Shown here: positions 38-5,018 of the stretch, one piece after another
Numbering within the stretch: position 1 is the first letter of the stretch
Layout: the number at the start of each line of letters is the position of its first letter
From: a virus
Lineage: Duplodnaviria; Heunggongvirae; Uroviricota; Caudoviricetes
Strand: one strand, 5' to 3'
IMG/VR virus record: IMGVR_UViG_2634166492_000001
Length of the DNA stretch: 5,018 nucleotides
Notes under the pieces: generated by a model
What the model was told of the DNA's origin: nothing
Databases searched by the model: none
The model's input: only the letters and a program-made list of their open reading frames with translations
Made by a program: the position numbers and the translations under genes

Positions 38-1214
<1,177 letters not shown>

Positions 1215-1250
1215 TGGAGCACCTGTGTTGTTCTGAGGTGAGCATATCAC

Positions 1251-1286
1251 CTCTGTTCAGGTGGCCAAATTCAGTGTGCCACTTCA
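1251..1286. repeat. IS911-like left terminal inverted repeat (IRL); inner boundary approximate
   Basis: Minus strand reads TGAAGTGGCACACTGAATTTGGCCACC from 1286 inward, matching the IRR at the 8 terminal bases and at the TGGCCACC block. Confidence 0.75.
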
Positions 1287-1376
1287 TTTCTTGCCTCAAA
1301 TGGCAGTACGTTAACTATTCAGTCAAATGGTGCGGCGTTTACTGCCACAACCATCAAGATAATCGCGGAGCAGTGA
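1287..1376 (+). pseudogene. 3'-terminal 29 codons of an ORF interrupted by the IS (possibly the tail-needle gp26-position gene by P22 synteny)
   Basis: Frame is open from the first base after the IS end (FLASNGSTLTIQSNGAAFTATTIKIIAEQ) to TGA at 1374..1376, which overlaps the next gene's ATG (TGATG), a typical coupled junction. Identity of the gene is inferred from position only. Confidence 0.4.
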
Positions 1377-1831
1377 TGATTCAGTTCAAACCAACGCGAA
1401 ACATCGACCTGATCGAAGCAGTAGGAAATCACACTGACATTATCGCCGGGAGCAACAACGGCGATGGATACGACTACAAGCCTGAATGCCGTTACTTTGA
1501 GGTTAACGTGCACGGGCAGTTCGGCGGAATTGTTTACTATCAGGAGATTCAGCCGCTAACCTTTGATTGCCACGCCATGTACCTGCCAGAGATTCGTGGA
1601 TTCAGCAAGGAAATCGGGCTGGCGTTCTGGCGATACATTCTGACTAACACCACCGTTCAGTGCGTCACATCGTTCGCTGCGCGCAAATTCCGCCACGGTC
1701 AGATGTACTGCGCAATGATTGGCCTTAAGCGTGTAGGAACCATCAAGAAATACTTCAAAGGCGTGGATGACGTGACGTTTTACAGCGCCACACGCGAAGA
1801 ACTAATCGACTTCCTGAATCACGGGAGATAG
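1376..1831 (+). CDS. P22 gp14-position protein (151 aa), function unknown
   Basis: ATG at 1376 with GGAG 5 nt upstream; stop TAG at 1829..1831. It sits immediately upstream of the gp7-like gene, as gene 14 does in P22. The track ORF start at 1214 lies inside the IS and is rejected. No motif recognised by eye. Confidence 0.8.
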   Translation: MIQFKPTRNIDLIEAVGNHTDIIAGSNNGDGYDYKPECRYFEVNVHGQFGGIVYYQEIQPLTFDCHAMYLPEIRGFSKEIGLAFWRYILTNTTVQCVTSFAARKFRHGQMYCAMIGLKRVGTIKKYFKGVDDVTFYSATREELIDFLNHGR

Positions 1832-1833
1832 CC

Positions 1834-2526
1834 ATGTTATATGCATTTAAGCTGGGCAGAAAACTGCGCGGCGAGGAACCTTATTGCCCTGAAAAAGGCG
1901 GGAAAGGTGGCAGCTCTGATAAAAGCGCAAAGTATGCAGCAGAAGCTCAGAAGTATGCCGCAGACCTGCAAAATCAGCAGTGGCAGACGATCATGAAAAA
2001 CCTTGCTCCGTTCACGCCTCTTGCGGAGCAGTATGTTAACCAGCTTCAGAACCTTTCCAGTTTAGAAGGTCAGGGGCAGGCACTTAATCAGTATTACAAC
2101 TCTCAGCAGTATAAAGACCTTGCAGGTCAGGCTCGTTACCAGAGTCTTGCTGCTGCGGAGGCGACGGGTGGACTTGGTTCGACAGCCACAAGCAATCAAC
2201 TGGCTACGATCGCGCCGACACTCGGTCAGTCTTGGTTATCAAACCAGATGAGCAATTACAACAATCTGGCAAACGTTGGGCTTGGTGCGCTGCAAGGTCA
2301 GGCAAACGCCGGGCAGACATACGCCAACAACATGAGCAGCATTGCACAGCAAAGCGCAGCTCTTGCCGCTGCTAATGCCAATAAACCATCAAGTCTTCAG
2401 ACAGCAATTAGTGGCGGAACGTCTGGTGCGATTGCCGGTGCAGGTCTTGCCAGCCTTTTGGGAATATCAACACCTTGGGGCGCTGGCATTGGTGCTGGTA
2501 TCGGATTGCTTGGCTCGTTGTTTTAA
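1834..2526 (+). CDS. DNA-ejection (E) protein, P22 gp7-like (230 aa)
   Basis: ATG at 1834 with GGGAGA upstream, 2 bp after the previous stop. Q/N/A-rich protein with a Gly-Ala-rich hydrophobic C-terminus; size matches what I recall for P22 gp7 (about 229 aa) and position matches gene 7. Confidence 0.85.
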   Translation: MLYAFKLGRKLRGEEPYCPEKGGKGGSSDKSAKYAAEAQKYAADLQNQQWQTIMKNLAPFTPLAEQYVNQLQNLSSLEGQGQALNQYYNSQQYKDLAGQARYQSLAAAEATGGLGSTATSNQLATIAPTLGQSWLSNQMSNYNNLANVGLGALQGQANAGQTYANNMSSIAQQSAALAAANANKPSSLQTAISGGTSGAIAGAGLASLLGISTPWGAGIGAGIGLLGSLF

Positions 2527-2535
2527 GGGGTAATC

Positions 2536-3867
2536 ATGGCTACTTGGCAAGGATCAAATGGCGGATTGTTAGCTGGTATCGGCGGCGTCAACTCAAACGC
2601 TCCGAACGTAAATGACATCGGCAATACGCTTCAGCTTATCAGGCAGAACAATGATATTGAGCGTTCAGGCGCTAACAATGTTGGGCTGACTGCTTTGCAA
2701 GGCCTTTCAGGTATTGCGGGGGTGTTTCAGCAGGAAAAGCAGGCTCAGCGGCAGAAAGAATTTCAGCAGGCGTACGCTAATGCTTATGCGTCTGGTGATC
2801 GCGGTGCTTTGCGTCAGTTGGCTACTCAATATCCAGACCAGATTGAATCCGTTCGTAAAGGCATGGGATTCATTGATGAAGACCAGCGTAATTCTATCGG
2901 CACCTTAGCGGCTGGCGCACGCCTTGCGTCATCGTCTCCAGAAGCAATGCAATCATGGCTGCAAAACAACGCCGGTGAGTTAGCTCGTGTTGGCGTTAAT
3001 CCTCAGGACGTCGCTCAGATGTACCAACAGAACCCGCGGCAGTTCGGCGAATTTGTCGATCACCTGGGGATGAACAGTCTCGGACCCGAAAAATACTTTG
3101 ACCTACAGGATAAAATGCAGGGTCGCCAGGTTACCATGCGCGGTCAGGACCTGGATTCGCAAACCGCCGCTCGGAATCAGGCAATCACAATGCGCGGGCA
3201 AGATATCCAGGCGAATTTAGGTCAGCAGCGCATTAATCTGGACGCAGAAACAAACCGCATTAACAACGAAAATAAGCGCCTTGACCGGATGCTATCAGCA
3301 GAAACTAACGACCTGAAGCGCCAGGAAATACAGAGCCGCATAGCAGCCAACAACCAGCAGTTGCAGCAGAAGCAGCAAGCGCTAAATGATGGCTACAAAG
3401 ACGGCATCAACACCCTCACAACCAGCATGTTCACTCTGAACGATATCGTTAGTTCTCCTTCACTTAAGAGCATTACAGGCTTACGTGGAGTAATCCCCAA
3501 CGTTCCAGGCTCACAGGCTGCAGACACTCAGGCACGACTTGATACCTTTAAATCCCAAGCATACCTGACAGCGGTTCAGGCCATGCGAGGCATGGGCGCA
3601 CTTTCTGATGCCGAGGGCAAAAAGCTCGACCAGGCTGTTGGTTCGCTGCAGAACTCGCAGAGCGAGGAGTCCTTTCGTCGCAACGCTGGCGTCATCCTGA
3701 ACACGCTCAACCAGAAGCGTAATGAGGCGGTTGGTAAGTACGTTCAGCAAAACGGTATCAAGCGAGTGGAAGCGCCTCAGGCTTCTATAGATTACCTGAA
3801 GCAGCACCCCGAGCTGTCAATCGACTTCATTAATCGCTACGGATATCTTCCATCTTTGGGGCAGTAA
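2536..3867 (+). CDS. DNA-ejection (E) protein, P22 gp20-like (443 aa)
   Basis: ATG at 2536 with AAGGGG upstream; stop TAA at 3865..3867. Q-rich, predicted coiled-coil protein in the gene 20 position; P22 gp20 is about 471 aa from memory. Confidence 0.8.
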   Translation: MATWQGSNGGLLAGIGGVNSNAPNVNDIGNTLQLIRQNNDIERSGANNVGLTALQGLSGIAGVFQQEKQAQRQKEFQQAYANAYASGDRGALRQLATQYPDQIESVRKGMGFIDEDQRNSIGTLAAGARLASSSPEAMQSWLQNNAGELARVGVNPQDVAQMYQQNPRQFGEFVDHLGMNSLGPEKYFDLQDKMQGRQVTMRGQDLDSQTAARNQAITMRGQDIQANLGQQRINLDAETNRINNENKRLDRMLSAETNDLKRQEIQSRIAANNQQLQQKQQALNDGYKDGINTLTTSMFTLNDIVSSPSLKSITGLRGVIPNVPGSQAADTQARLDTFKSQAYLTAVQAMRGMGALSDAEGKKLDQAVGSLQNSQSEESFRRNAGVILNTLNQKRNEAVGKYVQQNGIKRVEAPQASIDYLKQHPELSIDFINRYGYLPSLGQ

Positions 3868-4473
3868 ATGGCTAATTACCGTGATTTGTTAGAGCAGGCT
3901 GGCGCACGTTACGGTGTGCCAGAAGGGTTGATGACTGCACTGGGTGCCAAGGAGTCTTCTTACAACCCTGCCGCAGTAAGCTCCGCCGGGGCTGTAGGAT
4001 TGACTCAGGTCATGCCTGGGACATGGCGTGATATGGGTTATACCGATGAGCAAATGCAAAACCCCGAATATCAGGCTGACGCTGGCGCGCGCTATCTGGC
4101 AAAGATGTACCAGCAGTTTGGTAACTGGCGTGACGCTCTTCAGGCTTATCACGACGGTCCCGGCAACGTTATGAAGGCAAAGCGTGGTGAATATACGCCA
4201 GGACCTGAAGGCCGCGGTTACGTTGATGATCGCTTTGCTCAATGGGCTGGTGACCCGGTGACAGACTCAACAGTCGAACAGCGCGCCACCTCTGCAAAGG
4301 TACATCCTCAGCAAGACCCTAACAACCCGTTTGCACAACTGGAAGTACAGTCATCCGAACAAGTATCGGCATCAGGTGTGCAGTCAGACCCAAATAATCC
4401 ATTTGCTCAGATTGAGCAGCAGGCAGCCAGTCAGCATGCCTTCGCAACTCTTCACTATGGCGCGTTCTTTTAA
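3868..4473 (+). CDS. SLT-domain lytic transglycosylase (201 aa) in the third ejection-protein (gp16) slot
   Basis: ATG at 3868 directly abuts the previous stop (TAAATG). Family-1 lytic transglycosylase motifs are readable: [24 protein letters not shown] (E-S ... GLxQ, catalytic Glu at 3952..3954) and [10 protein letters not shown] (AYNxG-like). C-terminal third is low complexity with two DPNNPFAQ repeats. Confidence 0.85.
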
Positions 4474-5018
4474 AGCCGTAGCCAATGGCAAAATTTATAT
4501 CGGAAAAATTGACACTGACCCGGTAAATCCTGAAAACCAGATTCAGGTTTATGTAGAGAATGAAGACGGATCTCACGTCCCTGTTTCTCAGCCAATTGTT
4601 ATCAATGCTGCCGGATATCCTGTGTACAACGGGCAGATTGCCAAATTTGTAACTGAGCAAGGCCATTCAATGGCTGTATATGATGCGTATGGTTCGCAGC
4701 AGTTCTATTTTCAGAATGTGCTGAAGTACGATCCTGATCAGTTAAAGCAGTTACTTCAATCAGATGAAGGAGCTGCTCACATTGGCACTAATAGCGGAAA
4801 AAATCTCCAAGAGGAGCTATTTGCAATAAAAAATGAAATATATCAAGACCCGCTTACATCGTGGCCTTTCGGTGGAACATTAAAAATAAAGCAAGGGGTG
4901 TACGATATCGCGTCACCACTCGTTCTTGATTACGGCAACTATGACGCTAAATTTATTGGTTCGACAGGAGTCCGTGCTCATTATTCCGGAGAAAATATGG
5001 CAGAAACGATATTTAACT
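4436..5018 (+). CDS. Tailspike protein, 5' part (P22 gp9-type head-binding domain then divergent receptor-binding module); continues beyond window
   Basis: Translation ...[48 protein letters not shown]...[27 protein letters not shown] aligns almost residue for residue with recalled P22 gp9 residues about 10-113. No stop before 5018. Start is ambiguous (ATG 4436, ATG 4457 or TTG 4412); the frame is open back to 4262. Confidence 0.9.

Follow-up and report, generated by a model that had tools for sequence, protein, structure and literature searches.

Whether the open reading frame at the end of a stretch of tailed-phage DNA encodes a P22-like tailspike whose receptor-binding part has been exchanged, and if so what kind of module replaced it and in what kind of genome, is the question that this locus raises. 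The stretch, hereafter the window, is 5,018 nucleotides long (IMG/VR record IMGVR_UViG_2634166492_000001, Caudoviricetes). A sequence-only reading had proposed a module swap immediately after the peptide KYDPDQ, a drop in GC content at the same place, and a surface polysaccharide specificity different from that of P22. We find that positions 4436-5018 very probably hold the 5' part of a tailspike gene built of two modules, from a temperate P22-like (Lederbergvirus-type) phage of the SfX/Sf101 kind. The swap is upheld on grounds other than base composition.

The tailspike gene and its head-binding domain

The features of the window are as follows.

38..1286, minus strand: complete IS911 (IS3 family), lying in the prophage tail-needle gene (identity to Sf6 IS911)
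1287..1375, plus strand: 3' remnant, about 89 nt, of a P22 gp26-like tail-needle gene cut by IS911 (L001 alignment)
1376..3867, plus strand: three intact late genes (Pfam; 98% nt identity to Sf101 9039-12102)
1376-1831, plus strand: DUF2824/gp14-like gene (PF11039)
1834-2526, plus strand: gp7-like ejection protein gene (PF25688)
2536-3867, plus strand: gp20-like ejection protein gene (PF16928)
3868..4473, plus strand: truncated SLT-domain ejection protein, 201 aa, analogue of Sf101 gp13 and P22 gp16 (PF01464)
4430..4440, no strand: deletion junction with AGCA microhomology, where about 2.6 kb present in Sf101 is missing (alignment with Sf101)
4436..4741, plus strand: tailspike head-binding domain, native residues 12-113, ending in KYDPDQ (PF09008; P22/Sf6 identity)
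4742..4876, plus strand: native residues 114-158 at the start of the receptor module, predicted to form an alpha-helical neck (AF2 model)
4877..5018, plus strand: predicted first right-handed beta-helix rungs, native residues 159-205 (the gene runs past the window end)

The frame opened by the ATG at 4436 runs off the window at 5018, and the CAG codon for the final Q of KYDPDQ ends at 4741. Pfam recognises residues 1-102 of the frame as PF09008 (E=1.8e-59; 199 bits, where the cut-off is 24), over profile positions 12-113 of 113. By BLASTP, the same part is 74% identical to P22 gp9 (L010:16204-18204) over gp9 residues 13-113, with the alignment ending exactly at KYDPDQ, and at the nucleotide level 4436-4741 is 99.0% identical to gene 14 of phage Sf6. 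Near-collinearity with P22 gp9 up to 4741, as originally read, is thus borne out, and the peptide quoted for the residues after KYDPDQ agrees with the translation.

Several features of a P22-like tailspike were looked for in the gene. The PF09008 head-binding domain is present, and the gene occupies a Lederbergvirus-type late operon position downstream of the ejection-protein genes; the three late-gene Pfam families were assigned in gene order across 1376-3867, and the order gp14-like, gp7-like, gp20-like, gp16-like, tailspike is that of Sf101, Escherichia coli G3/10 and P22. A C-terminal right-handed parallel beta-helix is predicted, and homology extends across the neck, beta-helix and C-terminal domain of the SfX/Sf101/Sf11-type module. 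The native start codon and residues 1-11 are missing. Judged by these similarities, the head-binding part is a truncated member of the P22-like tailspikes.

A homology breakpoint after KYDPDQ

Similarity to the well-studied tailspikes ceases abruptly at the end of this domain. From 4742 onward, nucleotide identity to Sf6 falls to 25%, the shared run stopping at ...GATCAGTT, window position 4743. BLASTP found nothing significant in P22 gp9 beyond residue 113 (best E=1.9), which confirms that the sequence after KYDPDQ is unlike gp9, and no significant alignment emerged when the receptor module was compared with that of P22 (gp9 residues ~114-667; E=1.5) or, again by BLASTP, with the receptor domain of Sf6 gp14 (residues ~114-623; E=1.0). 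A phmmer search of PDB sequences likewise matched Sf6 gp14 over residues 1-116 only.

The distribution of the two parts in databases is equally uneven. A megablast search with 4436-5018 matched its first part in 28 records from phages and in 1,024 from E. coli. Among the matches listed, only Sf101 and the E. coli genomes G3/10 and PapM-32-1 reach the end of the query; in the other listed records the match ends at query positions 305-330, that is, at about window positions 4740-4765. The head-binding part is carried by 1,020 of 5,426 complete E. coli genomes, and what follows it by 2; with the receptor part alone as query, again just G3/10 and PapM-32-1 were retrieved. At the level of sequence comparison, the breakpoint at KYDPDQ is real and far beyond chance. 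A full-text literature search for 'YDPDQ' returned unrelated matches only.

Two known tailspikes frame this result. P22 gp9 (PDB 1TSP, 2XC1, 1LKT) shares with the present gene the two-module design, the place in the late operon and a head-binding domain collinear to residue 113, but differs in everything beyond that residue. The Sf6 gp14 endorhamnosidase (PDB 2VBK, 7SG7) is closer, with the same KYDPDQ junction, the same host species and the same general beta-helix architecture, whereas its receptor domain is related at most by a resemblance of fold at about 10% identity.

Identity and predicted fold of the receptor module

The nearest relatives of the sequence after KYDPDQ are found in Shigella flexneri phages. 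Nucleotide identity to Sf101 is 99.5% over 4430-4834 and 88% after about 4835, and the full-length protein could be read from annotated records of E. coli G3/10 (570 aa) and Sf101 (580 aa). A tblastn search against phages gave Sf101 (85%), Sf11 (85.5%) and the 3' end of the SfX gtrX record, which encodes the SfX C-terminus (85%); the remaining matches were distant, at about 30%, and came from Aeromonas and Pseudomonas phages. The full-length receptor module taken from a sibling contig matches PHROG 17420, 'tail protein', with E=6e-225. Pfam gave no match after residue 113, so the receptor module is without a Pfam family. These comparisons assign the receptor part to the SfX/Sf101/Sf11 module family, which at sequence level lies outside the P22 gp9 and Sf6 gp14 receptor-domain families.

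Among PDB sequences, phmmer found 'putative tail protein gp13' of entry 9OCC (chain G) with E=4e-256 over residues 121-569. This entry is the tail of the Shigella siphophage Sf11 (PMC12724387); gp13 is modelled there over residues 4-59 only (PMC12724387, Table 1), and 9OCC was therefore set aside as a solved structure of the receptor module, for which it provides sequence evidence only. Similarity to Sf11 gp13 begins at about residue 121 (nucleotide 402 of the truncated gene in the sibling contig) and continues at about 80-85% identity to the end of the protein. Conservation in the alignment sets in at the neck motif L-R/K-x-x-L-x-S-x-x-G-A-x-x-I-G and then grows strong.

AF2 was used to model, as a monomer, a full-length relative with 99% identity; helices there occupy residues 111-119, 123-126, 135-146 and 150-156. 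They would form a neck of about 45 residues after KYDPDQ, with the beta-helix starting at about residue 159 (window ~4877). The head-binding part of the model is poor (pLDDT below 50) and was ignored, since the alignment mixed unrelated N-terminal anchors. The architecture predicted after KYDPDQ starts with a helical neck, continues as a right-handed parallel beta-helix and closes with a C-terminal beta-sandwich. Homology and the AF2 model thus support the original proposal that a different beta-helix receptor-binding domain starts here, with the refinement that a helical neck precedes the beta-helix. By analogy with Sf11 gp13 (PMC12724387), the protein would be a homotrimer on the tail hub, onto which the head-binding adaptor (residues 12-113) would dock the trimer.

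The module itself varies among relatives. A 30-nt unit at 4799-4828, encoding 10 aa of the helical neck, is single in the window and in G3/10 and tandemly duplicated in Sf101 (L002 ~6363-6429), whose protein therefore has 580 instead of 570 aa. The allele in sibling contig L005 (1493-3172) is identical to that of G3/10 (L001 7968-9680) up to residue 221, differs at 48 positions in residues 222-500, the central beta-helix, and is identical again over the last 70 residues. Such mosaicism points to recombination, or to diversifying change, in the part that binds the glycan.

Module exchange and base composition

A search for the receptor module over 5.8 billion proteins showed that at least four kinds of N-terminus precede it (e.g., P0033, P0034, P0041, P0043 and P0047), in the following combinations.

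Behind PF09008: 570 aa, in E. coli and Shigella prophages
Behind PF18668: 585 aa, Sf11 type
Behind PF18668 plus PF03906 (T7 tail-fibre N-terminus): 673 and 774 aa
Behind unannotated N-termini: 447, 612 and 676 aa

In Sf11 gp13, unlike in the present protein, the anchor is a PF18668-type helical N-terminus that binds the distal tail protein gp17. Occurrence on unrelated anchors implies that the module moves between podophage and siphophage tail types. Within the PF09008 group, protein P0001 joins a head-binding allele other than that of the window (I66, V85, V98) to a 99%-identical receptor module; together with the variety of anchors, this allele indicates that adaptor and receptor parts assort independently. 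The exchange is the ordinary means by which P22-like phages change host serotype, through recombination in the conserved sequence that ends the adaptor or the neck. The authors of the Sf101 genome paper described ORF15 as a tail spike with a conserved N-terminus and a divergent C-terminus (PMC4159516), so that the module-exchange architecture is already known; what is added here is a new annotation, not new biology. Sf101 ORF15 ('bifunctional tail protein', AII27839.1) shares with the present gene the same head-binding domain and the junction after KYDPDQ; it differs in its own tandem 10-aa duplication, in the divergence after ~4835, in its neighbouring gene (see below) and in belonging to an intact, inducible phage.

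Horizontal acquisition of the module had also been argued from base composition, on the view that it came recently from an AT-richer donor and that GC content drops from about 50% to 40% at about 4742. The second figure is accurate, as 4742-5018 has 40.1% GC against 52.0% in the upstream ejection genes, the source of the '50% upstream', and a local minimum of 36.7% lies near 4697-4846. The conserved head-binding part (4436-4741), however, already stands at 43.5%, and the two parts do not differ significantly, either in overall GC (Fisher p=0.45) or in GC3 (42% versus 33%; p=0.18); over 4436-5018 the profile is statistically flat. The maximum-likelihood single change point within 1834-5018 falls at about 4465, with a step from 52% to 42%, and coincides with the tailspike gene start and the deletion junction. 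The complete receptor module, read from L005, reaches 45.3% (p=0.57 against the head-binding part), and the Sf11 homologue has about 45% GC on either side of its own junction. As for the local dip, the lowest 150-nt window (start 4697) was equalled or undercut in 78% of codon shuffles and is thus not significant. Flanking the complete gene are 52.7% GC upstream and 31.8% in gtrX downstream. The tailspike gene overall is AT-richer than the virion genes, with no step between its modules, and an AT-richer donor, already refuted by the exact calculation, deserves almost no credence. With no significant GC difference between the modules, base composition lends no support to horizontal acquisition, and GC content should not serve as evidence of acquisition here. 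The exchange itself stands, on the homology breakpoint and on the occurrence of the module behind several unrelated N-terminal anchors.

A deletion and IS911 in a defective prophage

The missing start of the gene is explained by a deletion relative to Sf101. Window positions 1376-4440 are collinear with Sf101 L002 341-3404, and 4430-4834 corresponds to L002 5995-6399; at the junction, ...CCAGTCAGCA is joined directly to TGCCTTCG... at a short AGCA microhomology. Lost in the deletion are most of the SLT ejection gene, tailspike codons 1-11 together with the region upstream of them, and a small divergent gene that is annotated in G3/10 as an Arc family DNA-binding protein. The native start reads ATG TCA GAT ATC ACC GCA AAT ATT GTG GTA AGC ATG CCT; the lost codons encode MSDITANIVVS, and the ATG at 4436 is Met12. 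The frame 3868-4473, whose SLT domain matches PF01464 at aa 7-110 (E=3e-26), consists of about 190 native codons and then reads on past the junction into tailspike sequence in the wrong frame; its intact homologue in Sf101 has 2,736 bp. An exact look-up of the 201-aa fusion protein identified the window as the whole of contig AMWM01000449.1 (GCA_000826695.1) and retrieved five Logan contigs (L004-L008) with the same junction; read sets of this deletion lineage include ERR6004689, ERR6004691, ERR6004925, ERR6004928 and ERR6005117. An assembly artefact at 4430-4440 was considered and is unlikely, since independent read sets show the same junction.

At the left end of the window lies IS911, whose 1,249 bp are 99.9% identical at the nucleotide level to the IS911 copy annotated in phage Sf6; the genes called on the window copy are orfA (912-1214) and orfB (46-699), with the Pfam domains HTH_Tnp_1 and rve. 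Window 1287-3072 corresponds to L001 2862-4647, starting inside the G3/10 CDS 'tail needle knob protein' (2103-2951). Positions 1-37 do not extend the G3/10 needle sequence, and the left flank would thus be a different needle allele or unrelated DNA. With about 2.6 kb deleted and IS911 inserted, the prophage is defective and its tailspike a remnant, and this copy is probably unused for virion production in this genome.

The remainder of the gene, gtrX and the host

The remainder of the gene, and gtrX, were read from the deletion-sharing sibling contigs, which are separate assemblies from the window. L005 is identical to the tailspike part of the window at 583 of 583 nt, and its frame continues as an intact ORF of 559 codons; the siblings thereby add 365 codons beyond the window end. 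After the tailspike, on the opposite strand, L005 encodes a 421-aa membrane protein (3239-4504) that matches PHROG 19534 (glucosyltransferase). This downstream DNA shows the tailspike-then-gtrX order of SfX, a P22-like phage (PMC3851460), and is 97.2% identical at the nucleotide level to the SfX gtrX record L05001.1 across the tailspike end and gtrX, a comparison that covers 384 nt of the SfX tailspike, outside the part lying in the window. Unlike SfX, the present copy is without codons 1-11 and the upstream region and carries the deletion and IS911. In Sf101 the neighbour is O-acyltransferase B (oacB; L002 7764-8936) instead of gtrX, and G3/10 has an acyltransferase at L001 9734-10906; the same tailspike module is thus linked to different O-antigen-modifying genes across lineages.

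Judged from gtrX downstream in the sibling contigs, the element is a defective SfX-type serotype-converting prophage. Its host is most likely S. flexneri; identical or near-identical truncated proteins (552 aa) are named 'Tail spike protein [Shigella flexneri]' in their source records. We propose that the gene be annotated as a truncated SfX-type tailspike of a defective gtrX prophage and not as a P22 gp9 orthologue. The prophage remnant that carries oac1b in serotype 1b was considered as a candidate and rejected: that remnant, which sits between torT and ycmA, has tail tape-measure and baseplate genes and no remnants of Sf6 genes (PMC3630932), and gtrX downstream in the sibling contigs also contradicts the identity.

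Two further database proteins may be mentioned. P0093, a 570-aa tailspike of the identical cluster, bears the source label 'MAG: ... [Mogibacterium sp.]', which on an Enterobacteriaceae prophage protein is probably a binning or contamination error. P0071 is a truncated relative of 333 aa containing PF09008, 75% identical over 48% of the receptor query, with 260 member sequences and a longest contig of 4.5 Mb, which suggests another widespread chromosomal tailspike remnant.

Possible functions and receptor specificity

A remnant of this kind could conceivably have been put to use by the host: expressed from Met12 or Met19, the truncated tailspike might act beside gtrX as a free enzyme that trims O-antigen or blocks phages. 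If this were so, the enzyme would work without a virion, either reshaping the O-antigen of its own host or keeping superinfecting phages out. The 559-codon ORF is intact in every sibling contig with the deletion, and ORF 3868-4473 overlaps the ATG at 4436, which makes translational read-through or coupling conceivable. A precedent for host proteins derived from tailspikes also exists: WceF of Pantoea stewartii (PDB 6TGF chain F), a bacterial enzyme that modifies exopolysaccharide, is matched by the head-binding part over query residues 8-119 (E=6e-8). However, only 8 of 559 residues separate the deletion lineage from the intact allele P0001; the ORF may be intact simply because the deletion is recent. 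A promoter scan found no sigma-70-like site for the tailspike, and no obvious Shine-Dalgarno motif was seen by eye just upstream of 4436, both being purely negative observations; the truncated protein is without a signal peptide or export route. We consider such a domesticated role highly improbable; the gene reads far better as a remnant of a virion tailspike, whose specificity can be discussed for the intact phage.

On that point, the earlier expectation that the polysaccharide specificity is probably not that of P22 is well supported. P22 cleaves Salmonella O-antigen, whereas the relatives of the present module are tailspikes of S. flexneri phages, and a specificity shared with P22 is very unlikely. 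Sf101 forms plaques on S. flexneri serotypes 1a, 1b, 3b and Y (PMC4159516), and Sf11, which carries the receptor module, depends on full-length LPS, being unable to grow on waaC, waaG and waaL mutants (PMC12724387). In an intact phage, the trimeric beta-helix would bind and probably hydrolyse S. flexneri-type O-antigen. The module might instead be a capsule or exopolysaccharide depolymerase, as its best fold matches include many capsule depolymerases and alginate epimerases and lyases, and some database names read 'pectate lyase superfamily'. These depolymerase-type matches, though, stand at 8-14% identity and reflect a generic beta-helix only, and all close relatives come from S. flexneri phages. 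The loss of Sf11 infection on the LPS mutants also speaks against a depolymerase, as does the genetic linkage of the module to genes that modify O-antigen, namely gtrX in this lineage and an acyltransferase gene in both Sf101 and G3/10; we regard a depolymerase as very improbable beside an O-antigen-specific tailspike.

The O-antigen of S. flexneri has a Rha3-GlcNAc backbone that is not known to contain uronic acid, which makes a lyase mechanism (beta-elimination) implausible for the O-antigen-specific tailspike. Two acidic residues, E338 and E372, are invariant in the family alignment; both lie beyond the window, and they are candidate acid/base catalytic residues. The receptor module, found on different anchors in podophages of S. 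flexneri as well as in a siphophage, is a reasonable target for studies of Shigella phage host range and for O-antigen diagnostics.
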